Positions 16,275 to 50,552 of a DNA stretch of 64,000 nt are shown here, in pieces. The notes under the pieces are model-generated. The model did no database searches. It had not been told where the DNA came from and saw only the letters and a list, made by a program, of their open reading frames with translations. Origin of the DNA: an uncultured delta proteobacterium (lineage in GTDB: Bacteria; Desulfobacterota; BSN033; UBA1163); NCBI GenBank assembly GCA_963711845.1, contig CAVQFR010000041.1, positions 21,182 through 85,181 on the forward strand. The letters are read 5' to 3'. Position 1 is the stretch's first letter; the number at the start of each line of letters is the position of its first letter. The position numbers and the translations under genes are program-made.

Positions 16275-16961
16275 TTAAGGAATCATTCTCCCCTCATCAA
16301 TTTCCCTTAAAACAAGTTCCTTGCCTCTCGCCAGATGCTTCCGGACAAGCCTTTCTGCCAATCTTGGGTTCTTCTTCTTCATCGCTTCCAACATCTGACG
16401 ATGGTCTTTATGGGAGGAGCTTACGCCATCTTGTATATGGAGCAAGGCAGACCGATACCGATAAAAATAGTCGCGGAAGGTATTGATCATCTCGACCAGT
16501 TTTTTGCTTTTACAGGATTTGTAGAGGAGATCATGGAATTCAGTGTTTAGCTGAACGACCTTATCATGGTCTCCTTTCTCCAAGGCATCCTCCGATTCCT
16601 TCAATTTATTCTCCAAAATGGAGATTTTGTCCGGGGCCATATGAAGGGTGGCTAAATAAGCAGCATAACTCTCGAGGGCACTCCGAATTCCAAAGATTTC
16701 CTCCACGTCCTCTTTTGTGAATTCCCTGACCGCAAAACCCCCTTTGGGAAGTCGGGTGACTAATTCATCCTTTTCCAGTTTGTGGAAAGCCTCTCTGACA
16801 GGGGTACGGCTGATTCCCGCGTGATCGGCCAATTGCTCCTCAATGAGATGCTGGCCGGGTTTCAATTTTCCGTGAAGAATAGATTTTCTTAATGACTCAT
16901 AGACTTCTTCCCGTAGGGATTTCTTTTTGCGGATCCGAAGGCCTCCTAATGTCGTTTCCAT
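16275..16961 (-). CDS. GntR family transcriptional regulator (FadR/FCD subfamily)
   Basis: 228 aa. N-terminal wHTH (ISRTPVREAFHKLEKDELV) followed by an FCD ligand domain. Divergent to the CoA-transferase gene. Confidence 0.9.
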   Translation of the reverse strand: METTLGGLRIRKKKSLREEVYESLRKSILHGKLKPGQHLIEEQLADHAGISRTPVREAFHKLEKDELVTRLPKGGFAVREFTKEDVEEIFGIRSALESYAAYLATLHMAPDKISILENKLKESEDALEKGDHDKVVQLNTEFHDLLYKSCKSKKLVEMINTFRDYFYRYRSALLHIQDGVSSSHKDHRQMLEAMKKKNPRLAERLVRKHLARGKELVLREIDEGRMIP

Positions 16962-22872: not shown

Positions 22873-22962
22873 AGGAGAGGTTGCCGAGTTGGCTTAAGGC
22901 GCCGCTCTCGAAAAGCGGTTCTCCCGAAAGGAGACGTGGGTTCGAATCCCACCCTCTCCGCC
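22873..22962 (+). tRNA. tRNA-Ser (anticodon CGA)
   Basis: 7 bp acceptor stem GGAGAGG/CCTCTCC, anticodon loop cuCGAaa, long variable arm, T-loop GGTTCGAATCC, encoded CCA. Confidence 0.85.
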
Positions 22963-23095
22963 ATCCTACGCCGAGGCTCTGTCTGGCAGGCCAGTTAAAG
23001 AAATATTCAATGGGATGAGAACCTTCCCCGACGTGAGGAGGGGAATTGGTTCGGCGACCCGAAGGGGAGGCGGAAGGAGCGAAGCGGATGAGCAC

Positions 23096-23304: not shown

Positions 23305-23397
23305 GGAGAGATGCCCGAGAGGCCGAAGGGGCACGATTGGAAATCGTGTATTCCGCTAATAACGGGATCGAGGGTTCGACTCCCTCTCTCTCCGCCA
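23305..23397 (+). tRNA. tRNA-Ser (anticodon GGA)
   Basis: Acceptor stem GGAGAGA/TCTCTCC, anticodon loop TTGGAAA, long variable arm, T-arm GAGGGTTCGACTCCCTC, encoded CCA. Confidence 0.85.
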
Positions 23398-23536: not shown

Positions 23537-23649
23537 TTGTTGATAGTCGGGTCCTGCGCAACAAAAGATTACAAACCCCGTCAGGTCCGGAAGGAAGCAG
23601 CGGTAGTGATCCCCTTTGTGTGCCGCAGGGGAGCCTGGCTATCAACAAG
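23537..23649 (+). ncRNA. ffs: Signal recognition particle RNA (small 4.5S-type)
   Basis: Contains the conserved domain IV motif GTCAGGTCCGGAAGGAAGCAGC. The terminal helix pairs TTGTTGATAG with CTATCAACAA. Its position upstream of dnaX is conserved in many bacteria. Confidence 0.8.
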
Positions 23650-36606: not shown

Positions 36607-36700
36607 TGGCGGAAGTGCATGGGAATCGAACCCACCACGGACATCTCTGCCCGTCACTGGATTTGAAGTCCAGGAGGCCCACCAGAACCTGTCCACTTCC
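36607..36700 (-). tRNA. selC: tRNA-Sec (selenocysteine, anticodon UCA)
   Basis: Reverse complement reads GGAAGTGGACAGGTTCTGGTGGGCCTCCTGGACTTCAAATCCAGTGACGGGCAGAGATGTCCGTGGTGGGTTCGATTCCCATGCACTTCCGCCA. The anticodon arm CTGGACTTCAAATCCAG is identical to E. coli selC as recalled from memory. Long variable arm, long acceptor stem, encoded CCA. Confidence 0.85.
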
Positions 36701-40077: not shown

Positions 40078-41111
40078 TTATCCATGTTTGGCCTTTGACC
40101 GCAACCACCCCAGCACTTCGTTCATATCTTCAGGGATGGGGGAAACAAATTTCACCCTTTCTCCACTTCGAGGGTGGGTGAATTCCAATCGTCGGGCGTG
40201 AAGGGCCTGGCGATTCATTCTCTTCACACACTCTTTCAAAACAGGGTCATGGATCGCCCCGGGTCTCCCTTTTCTTCCGTAGAGAGGATCTCCCAAAACG
40301 GGATGACCAATGGAGGAGAGGTGCACCCGGATCTGATGGGTTCGGCCGGTCTGAGGAAAGATCTCAAGGAGAGTGCAGCACTCAAATTCCTCCACTTTCT
40401 TCCAGCGAGTGACGGCCGCCCTTCCTTTTCTCGTCCGGGTCGACATCCGCTTTCTCTCACTTGGGTGTCTTCCGATGGCCGAATCGATTAAGCCTTCGTT
40501 AGGGCCGAATCTTCCGTAGGCAACGGCAAATAGACCTTTTCCACGGTCCGGTTTCTAAACTGTTTGGTCAAATGATGAAAAGCTTCATCCTCTTTAGCGA
40601 CGACCATCACACCCGATGTGTCTTTGTCCAATCGGTGCACGATCCCTGGTCTTAAGACACCATTAATGCCGGCGAGATCTTTGCAATGGTAAAGAAGGGC
40701 ATTGACCAATGTGCCGGAGGGATTTCCATAAGCAGGATGGACAACCATTCCGGGAGGCTTGTCAATGACGATGAGGAACGGGTCCTCATACAGGACGGTC
40801 AGGGGAAGGGGTTCTGGTTGGAGAGAAAACGATTCAGGCTGGGGGAGGCTTCCTGAGATCCTATCACCCGCTTTTAGATGTGTACTGGGTTTGGTCGGTT
40901 TTTGATTTAAAAGGATGTGATGTTTCTGAATCAAAGTTTTTGCATGAGAACGGGAGAGATTGAGATCGGCTTCCGAGAGAAATTGGTCGAGGCGCCTTCC
41001 GTGATCCTTTTCCATGACTTGAATGGAGAAAGATAAGTTCCCCTCCCCCCTCTTTAGCAAAGGGGGGGTGGGGGGATTTTGGAATTTATTCTTTATGGAA
41101 TCTTGCATCAT
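40078..41111 (-). pseudogene. rluD: RluA-family 23S rRNA pseudouridine synthase (RluD-like) split by a frameshift between 40446 and 40490
   Basis: ORF 40488..41111 has the S4 and catalytic N-terminal part (...HRLDKDTSGVMVVAK...). ORF 40078..40446 has the C-terminal part (...CTLLEIFPQTGRTHQIRVH...). The two are in different frames. Confidence 0.7.
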
Positions 41112-42542
41112 TGCGGCTGGAGATATTTCAATGCCTTCTCAATTCCGGCAGCCAAAAGAGGGATTTCTTCATCGAAGACGGTTCTCATATCCAGAATCAA
41201 TTCCTCTTTGCTGATTCGAGAAATAATCGGGGGATCACTCTTCCGTAGATTTTCTTCAAGGCTGTTCACGGAAAAGTCGAGAGGTTTAATGGCAACGACC
41301 ATGGTTGGAAGTTCTTGAAGGGGAAGGGCTCCACCGCCCACCTGAGAGACATCTTCTTTCAAAGAGAACGTCATCCTTTCATTCGTCATCCTCGACAACC
41401 TTTTCAGCAACTGTTTTCCTCTCCTTTTTAGCTTCCTCGTATCCAAACTCAACATGCTAAGAACGGGAATCTCTTCCATGGCTCTCTTCTCGTCGAGGTA
41501 GAGAAGCAAGGTTGATTCAAGAGCGGCCAGGGTGAGTTTGTCGATGCGAAGGGCTCGGGTCAAGGGATTGATCTTGAAGAGGTCCAGAATTTTTTTCTTC
41601 CCCAGAATGATTCCCGCCTGTGGCCCTCCAAGGAGCTTATCGCCGCTAATGGTGACCGCATCCACACCGGTTTTGATGGTTTCTTGAACAGTAGGTTCTT
41701 TTTCTAATCCATATTGAGAGAGGTCCACGAGGCAGCCGCTTCCTAAATCATCCACGACAGGGAGCTGATGCTCCCTCCCCAGTTGGACCAGATCCTGCAG
41801 AGAGACTTCGGAAGTGAATCCCATCACTCTGAAATTACTGGTGTGAACCTTCAGAAGCAGAGCCGTGTGAGGGCCAATCGGCCTTTTGGTAATCGTTGAA
41901 GTGAGTACGATTGGTCGTCCCGACCTCCCTGAGCAAAGCCCCGCTTCGTTTCATGACATCGGGGATTCGAAAAGCTCCCCCGATTTCGACCAGTTCTCCT
42001 CTCGAAACGATCACCTCCTTGCCCTCTGCAAGCGTATTCAAGGCAAGTAAGACAGCCCCGGCATTATTGTTCACCACCAAGGCTGATTCTGCTCCTGACA
42101 GGCGGCAGAGAATCTCTTCCACATGGGTATAACGGTCTCCGCGTTCACCCCGATCCAGGTCATATTCTAAATTGGAATAGGTTTTGGAGACCTCCATCAG
42201 ATGTTTAATCGCAGAGGAATGGAGGGGAGCTCTTCCCAGATTGGTGTGGATGACCACCCCGGTCGCATTGATCACCCTGCGGAGGCGGGGCTGAATCTGA
42301 AGGTCGATCTCTTTCTGAAAAAGAGGATAGAGGTTCTCGAAAGAGAAGATGGCCTCTCCTCGTTGAGAGAGGTCTTGTTTGTGGAGGATGTCATCGCGCA
42401 GCCGTCCCAATCCCTTTCGGATGGCTTCGACCACGACATGGCGGGGATGGACCTTTAAGAGGTCAACGATCTCTGGCCTTGAGAGGAGTTCATCGACGCT
42501 GGGGATCTCACGGAGCACCTGTTGACGAAGGGATGGAGACAT
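41108..42542 (-). pseudogene. selA: L-seryl-tRNA(Sec) selenium transferase, split by a 1-nt frameshift near 41876
   Basis: N-part RVINATGVVIHTNLGRAPL...VVNNNAGAVLL...VSRGELVEIGGAFRIPDVM...VGTTNRTHFNDYQKA. The C-part continues ALLLKVHTSNFRVMGFTSEV...DDLGSGCLVDLSQYGL...GDKLLGGPQAGII only in another frame. Confidence 0.8.
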
Positions 42543-44284
42543 TGGGCTTCCTCCTCATCAGGAGTGTTTTAAAGATCTTAAAGAAGTTCATCCGAATGAA
42601 TCGAGTGGGCCACTCCAGTTCTTTTTTCTCACAGATCGTGGACATGCTGTAATGACGGAGGGAGTGACGTCCACTGGCGATGGACTCCAAGATGCCTTCT
42701 CTCTCACTGGCATCCGGAAGAGCCATGATCCGGTCGATCTCCTTCATCATCCGGACGGACCCTTCAAGCCTTCCCTCGACCGATTCTGCGGTCTTCGGGT
42801 CGATCAGACCGAATTGGGCCTTCAGCCGGTTGAGTCTTTTCCCGGCCTCATAGGTGCTGTAAACGATCTCATCCCGATTCATCCATTCCGTTTCATAGTT
42901 GAGGATATATTTCCAGCTGGGAGCCAATGAGGCCTGACGGTGTTCTTCCACTGTCCGACAAAGCAGGCGGTATCCGTATTTTTCCGGCGCTTCAAAGACA
43001 GCACTCCCGGGATCCAAGAAGGGGGCCAGGGGAGAGATAAAGGGAAAAAGTTTGTTGTAAGAGCGAAATCGCTCCAAGAGGGAGTGACAATAATCGACCG
43101 TTTCCAGGACGGAGGAATAGGTTTGTTTTGGAAGGCCGGTCATGAAGAACAGATCGATCCGTTTCGAGCCAAGATCGACGGCATCCTCGATCATCCTTTC
43201 CAGCGATTCATTGTTGTAAGGTCTTCCGAAAGCCCTCCGGACTTCTTCATCGTGAGACTCAGGAGAGATTTCGATATTGAAGTTGAGAATGGAGTCAGCA
43301 ATCCTTTTCAGTTGAGCCCTCGTGGGAGGAACAAAAAATTCAAAAGCGATATGGTTGCTGATCGGCCTTCTCTTCATCTCCTGAAGAAAGGTAAAGCCAT
43401 ATTCTTCCCCGGGTTGAAAGATATCGCCGATGATCATCACCGGGGCATGAAGGTGATCCGAGACATTGAAGATATCCTGCGCCAGTAATTTGGGGTTCCG
43501 ATAGGCGGGTTTCCTCCGGTTGGCCATCGTTCGAAAGGTCTGTGCCGAGCCTCCGCAGGTTTTGCAGGAATAGGTGCATCCCCGGCAGGTGAAGACGGCT
43601 GTCACAGGATAGGTGTACCAATCCACAAAAGGCTGGTACCCTGTGGGATCAACATACCTCACCACCTTCTTCATGATGTGACTGTAATCGATCGTAATCT
43701 CGTCAAGGTTCTCCGGTACATGGGTGAGGGGATTGACCTGAATTTCATTTTCCGCCCCTCGATAGGTGAGGTTAGGAATATTTTTGAGGTCTCCGCCCTT
43801 TTTGATGGTTTGAAGGAGTTGGACCAACGGTTTCTCTGTAGAATCTCCTCTCATCACAAAATCAATAAATGGATATTGACGGAGTATCTCTTCATGATAA
43901 TAAGTGGCAGAGAGCCCACCCAAGATGACAGGGATGCTGGGATGAAACCGTTTAATGATCTCTGCAAGGGCCAAAGTTCCCTGGACATGGGCCATCCAAT
44001 GGAGATCGATCCCGAAGGCTACGGGCTCTATTTTTCTGGATGAGCCGCTCCACGTCAAATTTCTCATCCTTCAGCATCTTCATGGCCACATTGATGATCC
44101 TGACATTGAGACCATGGCGCTCCAAGTATTCCGAGAGGCTGGCAAACCCAATGGGATACATTTCAAAGATGGGGGTGGAGGGAACGACGTCGCTGATCGG
44201 ACCATGAATCCCGGGCCGCTTTCTAAAGTCGTAAAGGGTAGGCGGATGCAAAAGGATGAGATCAATACTTGCCATCTTCATCAC
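42508..44284 (-). pseudogene. B12-binding radical SAM protein, split by a frameshift in an A-run near 44030
   Basis: N-terminal B12-binding domain ORF (43952..44284, DLILLHPP...). Radical SAM core ORF (42508..44067, CRGCTYSCKTCGG). The junction agaaaaatag implies a homopolymer indel. Confidence 0.7.
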
Positions 44285-45432
44285 TTTGGAGTGGTAGGGG
44301 TTTCTGTTGTCTGGGTTTTTGCCTTATAGGCTTCGACCGACTTTTTAATCTCGGGATCGTCCTTCATCTGTTCATGTAGTGAAATGACGCGATTCATAAA
44401 TTGGTTTTTACCCCGGAGCTGGTTCAGGGTTCGTTCAGCCTCTTCCTTGGCCTTTCGCAATTGTGTTCTTTCAGCCTCTGGCATCGCCTTAGAACTTAAT
44501 CGTTCGTTGTAACTTTTGAGGTTGTTCTCCAAAGAGAGTCTTGTTGCCGAATTGTAAAAGACCGGCTCATTGTTATAAAAGAGGAGGTCAAGTCTTCCTC
44601 CAAACATTCCTCGAGAAGCGGTCTGCAGAATAATGATGTTTTTGATGACTGGAGGATAGGGGAGATTGATCCCGGTATGGCCCCCCGAGATGACATTGAT
44701 TCCCTGGACCCTCTGAGCGATTTCGATATCCTTCGCATAGCCAAGATGGCTCAGGAGAATGATCAGATCGGTTTTGGGCTTAAGTTCTCTGACCATGGCC
44801 TGTGCGGTTTCGATGGGTGAACGAAAATTCAGTCCCTTCTTCCGGGGATCAGAAGGACTTGAAAAGAAATCGGGTGAGAGAAGGCTAAAGAGACCAACTC
44901 GAAGACCGTTGATTTCCTTAACGAGAGAAGTTTGAAAAAGAGTTTTGCCGGATGCCTCATCGAGAAGGTTGGAACAGAGGAATGGAAAGTTCGCCTTCTT
45001 CGAAATTTCCAATAGAAATTCCTTCCCTAAGGTTAAATCATCATCCCCAATTCCCATGGCATCGTAACCCATTAAATTGAAACTCTCGATGATGAGGTGG
45101 GCCTTTCCGGCCATGGCTGCGAACTCATTTTCCGGAATGGGATTAAGATATTTTTTGAAAAGGAGATCGCCCGCATCTAAAACGAGTATTTCCTTTTCAC
45201 TCTCCCGTAAGTCCTTCACCCATGCTCCTCTTCTGGCCAGACCGCCAGCTCGACTCTTCTCCCCTCAGGTCGGGCAGGGGTCAATCTCACCATTGATATT
45301 ATTGCTATAGACGAGGGTAAGTGTTTTAGGGGATTTTTGGGCAAGGGATGGGGATGCATTGAAGGACAAGAAAAATCCCAGAACCAAAACACCTACCCTA
45401 AACCATTTTCCATTCATCGCCGGTTTTTCCAT
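44281..45432 (-). CDS. Secreted metallophosphoesterase (5'-nucleotidase/UshA N-terminal family) with an in-frame TGA at 45265-45267: candidate selenoprotein (C-P-T-U)
   Basis: Signal peptide MEKPAMNGKWFRVGVLVLGFFLSFNASPSLA. Sequence ...LTLVYSNNINGEIDPCPT[TGA]GEKSRAGGLARRGAWVKDLRESEKEILVLDAGDLL.... Both sides are in the same frame and both match the nucleotidase N-terminus (GGLARR, LLDAGD). A hairpin ctggc-GGTCTG-gccag begins 16 nt 3' of the TGA. Confidence 0.55.
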
Positions 45433-47476: not shown

Positions 47477-50400
47477 TTAGCTTTTTACCGGCTTCTTCGC
47501 CGGTTGTTTGGCCAATTTGCTTACATTGACCATGAATGCCTTCGATTCGGGGATCATCGTATTGGGATCCCCGATCGTCGGGGTGAGCAGATTGGCGCTC
47601 TCCCCACCATCCTTCGGATGGAGCCAGCCGAAATGCCAGGGAATTCCTACCTGGTGGACGGTCTGGCCGGCGATGTTGAAAGGCTTAAAACGGGAAGTGA
47701 CGATGGCCACTGCCTCAACTTTTCCCCGGGGCGACGCTACCATCACCCTGTCACCGTTCTTGATCTCTCTCAGTTTTGCCAGTTCCAGACTCATCTCGCA
47801 AAACATCTGAGGTTCAGCCTCGATGAGCCAAGGAAGCCAGCGGGTGAGAACTCCGGTCTGCCAGTGTTCAGTTACTCGATAGGTTGAGCAAACAAAAGGA
47901 TATTTGGGATCGCAAGTAAGGAACGTATCCAGGCCCCCTTCAAAAATTCTGACGACCGGATTGATCCTCTGGTTGGACATCAAGTTCTTTTCAATGGGAC
48001 ACTCCAGGGGTTCATAATGTTCGGGGAATGGCCCATCTTTCAGTCCAGGTCCGAAAATCGAGGCTACACCATCCGGTTTCATGATGAACGGATAGACTCC
48101 GGTGGTTCCCATCGGAGGCACGGCATTGTCGGGAACATCCCCTATCCATTTCTTTCCGGCCGCATCCCATTTGAGCAAGGGCCGTTTGGGATCCCTTGGA
48201 TTTCCATCCAGATCCACGGAAGCCCGGTTGTAGATGATCCTTCTGTTGAGTGGCCAACACCATGACCACTCAGGATAGAGGCCTAAACCCGTTGGATCGG
48301 TCTTCTTCCTCCGGGCGGCCATATTGCCAGCTTCGGTATAGCTGCCTGAATAGAGCCAGTCACCGCAGGAAGTGGTTCCATCATCGTTTAGAGGAACAAA
48401 ATTGGGAAGCAATTTACCAGTCGTGAGGTCGTAGCCATTGATCTCCTTGGCTACTTTGTGAATATCAAAATGACCGTTCGTCTCATAATCCCACTTTAAG
48501 TTCAAAATCGGCTCTGGAAAATCGCCCTTATCCTTCTCGTAGAGAGCTCGAACCTTCTTAAACAACTCATACATGATATCGCCATCAGGTTTGGCCACTC
48601 CTGGAGGATTGGCCGCTTTATAGCGCCACTGCATCCAACGGCCGCTATTGCTTATACTTCCTTCCTTTTCCAAAAAGGCTGCGCAAGGGAGCTGGAACAC
48701 TTCGGTTTTAATCTTCTTTGGATCCATTCCGGGGCCTTTCCAGAAAGACCCGGTCTCATTATCGAAGACATTCACATTGACCATCCAGTCAAGCTTCGTT
48801 AATGCTTGACGGGCCTTCCCCGCGTTGGCGCTTGAACAAGCCGGGTTCATACCCCACGCAAAGAAACCTGTGAAAGATCCTTTGTACATTTCGTCAAAGA
48901 GATTCAACCAGGAAGCGTCTTGACCTGTATCGAGTTTCGGCATCCAGGCATAACCGAATTCATTCTCTTTCGTGGCTTTATCCCCGAACATCGTTTTTAA
49001 GAAACTGGCCACATACTTAGGTCGGTTCTTCCACCAGTTGATACTCCGGGGATCCTTCGAGGCCGGCGTGGTTTTATTGTAATCGGCCAAGGTTGCTAAA
49101 TGAGCTTGGGGATTAGGTAAATATCCTGGCCAGATATGAAAGAGAAGGCCTGCATCGGTCGAGCCCTGAACATTCGATTCGCCTCGAAGGGCATTGACGC
49201 CTCCGCCTGCAATGCCCATATTTCCAAGAATCGATTGGATGATGGACATAGCCCGGATATTCTGAACGCCCACGGTATGTTGCGTCCACCCCATGGCGTA
49301 TAATACGGTTCCGGCTTTATCCGGAGCGCCGGTAGCCCCATAGGCCTTATAAACTTTTTCCAAATCTGCCATTGGAGTTCCTGTGATTTCCGAAACCTTC
49401 TGGAGCGTATAGCGGGAATAATGTTTTTTGAGAAGTTGTAAGGCACAACGAGGATCCTGCAGGCTCATATCCCTTTTGGGAATCCCCTGTTCATCCTTTT
49501 CTAATGCCCAGGTGGATGCATCATAGGCACGTTTCGTGGGATCATATCCCGAGAAGAGGCCATCATCGAATCCATATTTGGGATTCACGATGAAAGAGGC
49601 ATTGGTGTAGTTCTTGACGTAGAACTCATCGTAGAGATTGTTGTCCAGAATGTACTTGATCATGCCGCCCAGGAAAGCGATATCAGTCCCTGAACGAAGT
49701 CTGACAAAAATATCAGCTTTGGTGGATGTTCGAGTGAATCTTGGGTCCACATGGATAAAGGTTGCCCCTTTGTCTTTTGCCGCCTGAATCCATTTAAATG
49801 AAACGGGGTGGTTTTCTGCAACATTGCTACCCATGTTCAAAATCACATCAGCATTTCGAAAATCGTTGTAGTGATTGGTCATTGCACCGCGTCCGAACGA
49901 CTCTCCCAGAGCCGCTACAGTTGCGCTGTGTCAGATACGGGCCTGGTGTTCAATATAAACAAGGCCCAGGGACCTAAGAAACTTTTGATAGAGCCAACAT
50001 TCCTCGTTATCCAGGGCCGCGCTTCCCACAGAGGCGATGCCATTGGTTCGATTCACAACCTGGCCTTTTGCATTTTTCTCCATGAAACTCTTGTCGCGGC
50101 TCTTCTTGATGTTCGCTGCAATCTTGTTCAGAGCCCATTCCCAACCTACTTCTTTCCATGCAGCGCTCGAAGGAGCGCGGTAAAGGACTTTCTGCAAACG
50201 ATTGGGATTGACTGCGATTTGAAAGCTTGAACCCCCTTTCGGGCATAGGGCGCCTTCGTTGATGGGATGGTCGGGATCTCCCTCGGCATTGATCACCTTA
50301 CCTTTGGCTATCGGTATGGACGATAATTCCGCAGCCGACCGAACAGTAGCAGCAGACCGTGGTGGTTGCCTTGGCCCCTTTAATGCGCAATTCCTGGGCA

Positions 50401-50552
50401 TAGACCTCGGCCGGAGAAAGATCAAATCCCAGACCACCCATCACCGTCCCGGCGGCTGTTGCCCCCGAGATCTTCAAAAAGGTTCTTCGGTTAATCTTCA
50501 TAGATATTCCTTGGCCTCCTTTCTCAAATTTGGAGATGAGAGTTGAACTCAC
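47477..50552 (-). CDS. fdhA: Formate dehydrogenase catalytic subunit, Tat-exported, selenocysteine-containing (TGA at 49931-49933), with an apparent 1-nt frameshift near 50300
   Basis: Tat signal MKINRRTFLKISGATAAG. [4Fe-4S] motif CCYCSVGCG. Reading continues in frame through TGA as ...YIEHQARI-U-HSATVAALGESFGRGAMTNHYNDF..., matching the E. coli FdnG Sec motif QARV-U-HGPTV. The N-terminal 84 aa ORF (50298..50552) is in a different frame from the rest. Confidence 0.85.

Follow-up and report, generated by a model that had tools for sequence, protein, structure and literature searches.

The ushA-like gene and its in-frame UGA

The window analyzed here is a stretch of 64,000 nucleotides from an uncultured delta proteobacterium (contig CAVQFR010000041.1 of assembly GCA_963711845.1, positions 21,182 to 85,181). 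It contains, on the minus strand, a gene for a UshA-like protein of the 5'-nucleotidase type, interrupted by a UGA codon that is very probably read as selenocysteine (Sec). The gene occupies positions 44281-45432 and comprises 383 codons when counted from the ATG at 45432, including the in-frame UGA at 45265-45267, which is the sole internal stop in the translated frame (coordinates are on the minus strand unless stated otherwise). The translation reads MEKPAMNGKWFRVGVLVLGFFLSFNASPSLAQKSPKTLTLVYSNNINGEIDPCPT up to the UGA and GEKSRAGGLARRGAWVKDL...ILVLDAGDLL after it. The first part consists of a signal-peptide-like N-terminus followed by ...TLTLVYSNNINGEIDPCPT, and the second part continues to ...ILVLDAGDLLFKK. 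Possibly the true start is the second ATG, at 45417 (MNGKWF...), as judged from orthologs, which would give 378 codons. Residue numbers are nevertheless counted from the ATG at 45432.

The first 31 residues (45340-45432) form a predicted signal peptide of the general secretory type, with a positive n-region, the hydrophobic segment VGVLVLGFFLSF, and then SLA followed by QK. This layout was read from the sequence and its pattern is kept in the orthologs, so that export of the protein by this route is predicted. Downstream of the signal peptide, Cys53 (codon TGC, 45274-45276) is the first residue of a C-P-T-U motif, of which the UGA would specify the last, Sec56. The motif is present in all 81 unique sequences, with Cys53 invariant in the alignment.

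To establish how constant the UGA is, the codon at this site was read from the DNA of 12 GTDB species representatives, which are metagenome-assembled genomes (MAGs) of Thermodesulfobacteriota/Syntrophaceae, and of 80 metagenome contigs. In total, 93 loci have the layout C-x-x-?-x6-GGLARR, with 61-100% amino acid identity. The codon is TGA in 90 of them, TGC in one (locus L015) and TTA in two (L001 and L002). For the species representatives this corresponds to TGA in 11 of 12, and Cys in the remaining one. Orthologous full-length open reading frames (ORFs) were found in 11 species representatives and at 80 metagenome loci. Coding conservation is seen on both flanks of the UGA, with purifying selection and without any frameshift in the ORF. 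The 16 codons that separate the UGA from a GTG at 45219 are conserved as protein as well (GEKSRAGGLARRGAW).

A protein search retrieves over 100 clusters with identities of 74-100%, and almost every one has been called as a protein of 312 residues that begins at the GTG just past the UGA. The public entries for the clade number in the hundreds and are truncated proteins named 'hypothetical protein' (NCBI, cut at the UGA) or '5'-nucleotidase', and the Joint Genome Institute (JGI) uses the name 2',3'-cyclic-nucleotide phosphodiesterase. Of the 'full-length' proteins in databases, two were examined. One of these, P0060, has a tryptophan at the site that results from translating TGA under another genetic code, and the other, P0021, has a genuine TTA.

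The Sec clade has a sister clade of Cys forms, in which the Cys of the motif EPCP[SG]C[DE]GGSxLGGLARR is aligned to the UGA. It comprises approximately 43 protein clusters and is represented by P0123 and P0271-P0310 and by loci L015 and L096-L102, annotated as '5'-nucleotidase family'. Its members have 333 residues, are about 45-51% identical to the window protein, and have a Cys codon at the site in every DNA examined. Since these homologs align as continuous ORFs, the two sides of the UGA belong to one protein. No Cys forms were found inside the Sec clade among the loci read through the site. Sister-clade entries of 267 residues were considered as further Sec forms, and this was rejected for the one that was checked, P0319, which has TGC at the site and is shortened by an upstream stop or an indel in a long-read contig.

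Altogether, the locus is best explained by one exported protein of approximately 380 residues belonging to the UshA-like group, with the UGA at 45265-45267 very probably decoded as Sec. A preliminary description of this DNA had already read a frame continuous across the TGA, a signal peptide upstream and a single protein in which the UGA is either decoded or an error, and it had named orthologs with Cys at this position as a check beforehand. The single protein and its decoding are borne out by the conserved flanks and by the Cys of both L015 and the CP[SG]C clusters, and the pattern of the orthologous N-termini agrees with a signal peptide.

The downstream hairpin and the selenocysteine machinery

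A bacterial selenoprotein gene is expected to have a selenocysteine insertion sequence (SECIS) in its mRNA. The preliminary description had proposed the hairpin CUGGC-GGUCUG-GCCAG for this role, and it is indeed present at 45233-45248, with a stem of 5 bp and a GGUCUG loop of 6 nucleotides. The hairpin starts 16 nucleotides past the UGA and its loop 21 nucleotides past it, so that a stem-loop with G in the apical loop stands shortly after the codon. A spacing of about 21 nucleotides is within the usual range of bacterial SECIS elements. Across the clade the element has the form [C/U]UGGC-GGUCUG-GCCAG. Among the 81 unique sequences, pair 19-34 is C-G in 41 and U-G in 40, pair 20-33 is U-A in 72, and the three G-C pairs of the stem are essentially invariant and the only pairs kept by RNAalifold.

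The hairpin overlaps the codons for A-G-G-L-A-R. Because this peptide is itself conserved, nucleotide conservation of the hairpin needed a control. Synonymous sites were used rather than folding energy, as the latter alone is not significant. Third-position entropy was ranked, lowest first, over 70 fourfold-degenerate sites in a codon alignment of 78 unique Sec-form genes. The four such codons of the hairpin (GGC GGT CTG GCC) take ranks 1, 2, 4, and 6, and ranks 3 and 7 belong to the codons that flank the UGA. When the 187 conserved degenerate codons of the gene are considered, codons +7 to +12 form its most constrained six-codon segment, with a mean normalized entropy of 0.147 compared to 0.595 gene-wide (0 of 200,000 permutations, p < 5e-6). 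The seven next most constrained segments all lie within codons -1 to +20. The Cys forms provide the counterpart. They code the same GGLARR with GGA/GGG, GGN, and YTG codons, by which the closing base pair is lost: GGA or GGG replaces GGC at codon +7, breaking the stem, in 6/6 unique Cys-form DNAs. Three of these six were folded and their equivalents of the hairpin reach only -1.3 to -2.8 kcal/mol. The element is thus specific to UGA-containing genes and, judged by its synonymous constraint, behaves as a SECIS. In this case, the complex of SelB, GTP, and Sec-tRNA(Sec) would bind to this minimal SECIS and bring Sec to the ribosome.

A known SECIS for comparison is that of E. coli fdhF, whose apical GGUC loop is bound by SelB. 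The loops of both elements start with G-G-U-C. However, the stem of the fdhF element has approximately 10 bp and a bulged U, whereas the stem described here has 5 bp, and there is no lower stem taking in the UGA. A stronger element is present within the window itself. The gene for the alpha subunit of formate dehydrogenase (FDH), FdhA (47477-50437), has its own in-frame TGA at 49928-49930, followed by a hairpin with a 9-bp stem and a GGG loop of -19 to -22 kcal/mol, compared to about -8 kcal/mol for the hairpin in the ushA-like gene.

Besides this Sec-containing FDH, the preliminary description had placed a tRNA-Sec and selA near the gene, and all three were located in the window. The tRNA-Sec, with anticodon UCA, lies at 36607-36700 (ARAGORN; Rfam RF01852, 81.4 bits). 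The gene for selenocysteine synthase, selA (41108-42542), is the third in a string that starts with the ushA-like gene and has in between a B12-binding radical SAM (rSAM) gene of the TIGR04190 family (B12_SAM_Ta0216; 42508-44284). The ATG of the rSAM gene overlaps the stop codon of the ushA-like gene (TGATG), and rSAM is directly downstream in every Sec-clade locus that is long enough to show it (L001, L004-L014). In these loci the order past the ushA-like gene is rSAM, selA, rluD, pgeF. Just upstream of the ushA-like gene in the window lie the genes for the FDH alpha subunit, fdhB and an fdhE-like protein. Such FdhA(Sec)-FdhB-FdhE-like genes are found upstream in most loci, with unrelated genes in their place in L005 and L007, and a functional link to FDH was rejected on this ground. 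In the Cys clade, the neighboring genes encode a 3-hydroxyacyl-CoA dehydrogenase, a multihaem/NarI-like protein and an ABC transporter, without rSAM or selA. Two loci of this clade (L098, 1591-3420; L102, 302-2101) encode a protein of approximately 600 residues with faint matches to multihaem cytochromes and NarI-like proteins, and Cys-form genes also occur near FAD-oxidase/CCG (HdrD-like) genes. Possibly these genes form the electron-transfer partner set of the Cys forms.

Three 1-nucleotide indels, at approximately 44028, 41879, and 40527, split rSAM, selA, and rluD (40078-41111) into two ORFs each. They were called relative to L004, an orthologous locus that is 94% identical, and the genes are single-frame in all other loci. 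The indels are probably assembly errors, most likely so for the one in selA. If they were real, selA would be inactive, which is at odds with the two conserved selenoprotein genes adjoining it. Locus L004 also has, at its end, a second, partial ushA-like copy about 8 kb downstream of the first (16696-16935, 91% identity over 80 residues), which is either a duplication or an assembly artifact. Elsewhere in the window, an SRP (signal recognition particle) RNA (23545-23643) and two tRNA-Ser genes (22874-22963 and 23305-23397), all on the plus strand and upstream of dnaX, are ordinary housekeeping features.

Several observations weigh against a selenoprotein that is decoded with the help of this hairpin. 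The hairpin has little length or stability (-5 to -8 kcal/mol), and the 76-nucleotide region has a z-score of +1.2 compared to shuffled sequences, i.e., it folds no better than these. Pair 20-33 is a C-A mismatch in 8 of the 81 sequences and A-A in 1. Double compensatory changes are absent from the 81 sequences, so that covariation proper is not seen. No Rfam SECIS model matched, either in the window at gathering thresholds or in 45150-45320 at E <= 10, where only noise was returned. Neither selB nor selD was found in the window, in which only large ORFs were checked, and selA is frameshifted in this assembly. Lastly, TTA (Leu) replaces the UGA in one population, in a gene that is otherwise intact and has an unchanged hairpin (L001, 6133-6135; L002, 724-726; ERZ4756917/ERR6564811, about 4x coverage). 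Both assemblies probably go back to one set of reads. The TTA may have arisen recently and inactivated this copy, or it may be tolerated, in which case Sec is dispensable in that population.

These points leave room for other explanations of the UGA and of the hairpin. In case the UGA were an ordinary stop, the locus would encode an exported peptide of 55 residues and a separate cytoplasmic protein of 312 residues starting at GTG 45219. This agrees with the more than 100 database entries called in this way, and with the use of UGA as a normal stop, including at the end of the ushA-like gene itself. However, the 16 codons between the UGA and the GTG are conserved as protein and align with the continuous ORFs of the Cys forms, neither piece is a complete domain as the first strand of the fold lies upstream and the rest downstream of the UGA, and the synonymous constraint falls just past the codon, by which an ordinary stop becomes highly improbable. 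A sequencing or assembly error at the TGA, or a pseudogene, could be suspected from the three indels that lie within 4 kb of the ushA-like gene, but the comparative data refute this: 90 independent loci, obtained from many samples and with many assemblers, have TGA at this codon, in an ORF without frameshift that is under purifying selection on both sides. The likelihood of this explanation is therefore practically nil. It could also be argued that the nucleotide conservation past the UGA reflects only the GGLARR motif or codon preference, with recoding driven by another signal, as the hairpin has a low stability and lies over the peptide that is most conserved in the superfamily. Against this, the Cys clade codes the same peptide with stem-breaking codons, and other invariant Gly, Pro, and Thr codons of the gene vary freely at their third position, which makes this explanation very unlikely.

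Fold, active site and possible function

P0060 and P0021 served as proxies of the window protein. An AlphaFold model of P0021, the closest full-length proxy, has a predicted template modeling (TM) score of 0.80 and shows a metallophosphoesterase fold in the N-terminal domain. Foldseek matches this model to the 5'-nucleotidases 3ivd, 1ush, and CD73 (E = 1e-19, TM 0.64), and a profile search of PDB sequences (hmmsearch) also returns 5'-nucleotidases (E = 1e-27). The strand that carries motif I is located upstream of the UGA and the remainder of the fold downstream. The N-terminal fold is therefore common to the window protein and the canonical 5'-nucleotidases, such as E. coli UshA (1ush), c4898 (3ivd), the T. 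thermophilus enzyme (2z1a) and CD73, and also the thiosulfohydrolase SoxB, at about 20-25% identity.

The active-site motifs were mapped by profile alignment to 3ivd and 2z1a, combined with a motif table of 42 relatives. Motif I is N45-I46-N47 (45292-45300) in place of the canonical D-x-H, and motif III is G129-D-D-D132 (45037-45048) in place of G-N-H-[ED], by which the catalytic His is lost. In contrast, motif II, D86-A-G-D89 (45166-45177), keeps the bridging Asp, with D86, G88, and D89 invariant in the alignment. The metal-ligand positions of motif IV, His229 in LSHLG (44746-44748), and of motif V, His252 in GGH (44677-44679), are kept as well. The preliminary description had recognized conserved metallophosphatase motifs in the protein, which holds for the GD of motif II and for both His motifs, but not for motif I (NxN) and GNH[ED] (GDDD). 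In the 42 relatives, the loss goes together with the Cys/Sec pair, which has no counterpart in the canonical enzymes: every relative with Cys-x(0-2)-Cys/Sec before GGLARR lacks both DxH and GNH, and conversely the Cys pair is missing wherever DxH and GNH are present. The pair of the UshA-like group stands in the loop that follows strand 1.

The protein differs from the canonical enzymes in further respects. No match to Pfam Metallophos or 5_nucleotid_C was found in the window protein at E <= 0.1. The substrate-binding domain at the C-terminus of 5'-nucleotidases, which binds the nucleotide, was found neither by Pfam nor in the model, which ends in two helices, a strand, and a final helix. In the C-terminal helical region (44329-44503, residues 310-368), Pfam PEP-utilisers_N scores 25.3 bits, compared to a gathering threshold of 24.4, a match that most likely reflects coiled-coil similarity and not homology.

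Information on what the UshA-like group may do comes from fusions. Exactly four CxxCH motifs are present in 29 of 150 representatives, 28 of which lack the canonical DxH. P0130, a protein of 1207 residues, combines two UshA-like modules, a DsbA-like domain and a haem domain. Judging by these cytochrome and DsbA-like fusion partners, the group as a whole may have a redox role, located in the periplasm. On this ground, the UshA-like selenoprotein would be a periplasmic redox or metal-dependent enzyme instead of a nucleotidase, and the redox role that the preliminary description attached to C-P-T-U, a CxxU motif, is plausible. Cys53 and Sec56 would adjoin that half of the metal site which has been kept (D86, D89, D130-132, H229, H252), where they might take over from the lost Asp/His as ligands of a metal, or join in a redox-active selenenylsulfide. 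A separate partner would then supply the electrons, as the haem domain of the relatives is absent here. A point against this arrangement is that the Cys/Sec loop (P0021 residues 36-49) has a predicted local distance difference test score (pLDDT) below 50 in the model. Its position at the metal site is deduced from topology.

The opposing view is that the protein is a genuine selenoprotein yet a conventional periplasmic 5'-nucleotidase or phosphodiesterase, in which CxxU is only a regulatory or structural redox switch. The fold, the best PDB matches, the retention of motif II and of two His ligands, and the name 2',3'-cyclic-nucleotide phosphodiesterase used by JGI for homologs agree with such a role. 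Nevertheless, nucleotidase activity is doubtful because DxH of motif I and the catalytic GNH[ED] are lost. None of the relatives with a Cys/Sec motif keeps the Asp and His of motif I or the Asn and catalytic His of GNH[ED], neither Pfam domain is matched, the C-terminal substrate-binding domain is absent, and relatives are fused to haem and DsbA-like domains. A conventional enzyme is thus unlikely, as is a nucleotidase function of the UshA-like selenoprotein. A tentative reading that joins these elements assumes an uncharacterized periplasmic redox centre built on a phosphoesterase scaffold, in which the Asp/His of one metal site have been exchanged for thiolate and selenolate, and a module that was freed from its cytochrome domain in a Syntrophaceae-like clade. 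Its translational coupling to the TIGR04190 rSAM gene and selA could then reflect more than co-location, namely a dedicated pathway that possibly handles selenium or sulfur. As a whole this is doubtful, although conceivable.

Family placement and comparison with known UshA-like proteins

The preliminary description knew of no Sec-containing family of 5'-nucleotidases or metallophosphoesterases. This did not hold, as 'COG0737, UshA-like, CxU' is one of the major families in the 2008 selenoproteome from Global Ocean Sampling (GOS) data, where the group was not classed as redox (Zhang & Gladyshev, PMC2398784). UshA-like selenoproteins are listed again in 2022 and 2026 reviews, and two NCBIfam models cover them. 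NF041198 ('UshA_like_PCGU', UshA-like (seleno)protein) corresponds to the COG0737 protein of PMC2398784. NF049981 ('UshA_like_Sel_2', family 2) is listed as a GenBank-annotated CxxU family (PMC13188914). The existence of Sec in a 5'-nucleotidase-type fold is therefore not new. Since the group has been catalogued since 2008, the window protein is not a new class, but an unlisted short CxxU subfamily of it, spread over a clade of Thermodesulfobacteriota/Syntrophaceae-like MAGs.

The best NCBIfam match of the window protein is NF041198, in which it aligns to profile positions 5-382 of 519 and scores 244.4 bits, short of the curated cut-off (275 bits). Relatives remain below this cut-off as well (235.8 bits for the ortholog at L013, 206.9 for a Cys form). 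NF049981 reaches 71.3 bits, compared to a cut-off of 140, and covers only profile positions 1-90 of 262. Because neither model reaches the clade, too few selenoproteins are counted for wetland and peat Thermodesulfobacteriota, which could be mended by a third hidden Markov model or by lower cut-offs. Apart from this, the label '5'-nucleotidase' is probably misleading and wrong, considering that the catalytic residues are lost, that this loss goes along with the Cys/Sec pair, and that relatives are fused to tetrahaem cytochromes. Together, these three observations provide a concrete functional hypothesis for the UshA-like group.

Compared to NF041198, the window protein shares an N-terminal 5'-nucleotidase-type domain with a degenerate motif I, a loop before GGLARR that holds the Cys/Sec pair, Sec being the second residue, a helical region after the catalytic domain, and export. 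It differs in having C-P-T-U (CxxU) instead of P-C-G-U (CxU), and in lacking the C-terminal approximately 140 residues (profile positions ~380-519). Proteins that pass the NF041198 cut-off (P0134, P0165, P0171, P0131) carry at the C-terminus a tetrahaem Cytochrome_C554 domain containing four CxxCH motifs, compared to none in the window protein's clade. Their motif is CGC or CSC in P0134, P0171, and P0165, and P0131 has been called from downstream of the motif. With NF049981 the window protein has in common the CxxU spacing, a short single-domain architecture and the N-terminal ~90 residues that include the motif, whereas beyond this stretch it resembles NF041198 more closely. The Cys sister clade belongs to the same length class and shares the CP[SG]C-x6-GGLARR layout, GDDD, LSHLG, and GGH, but it has Cys for Sec, no hairpin, another C-terminus and other neighboring genes.

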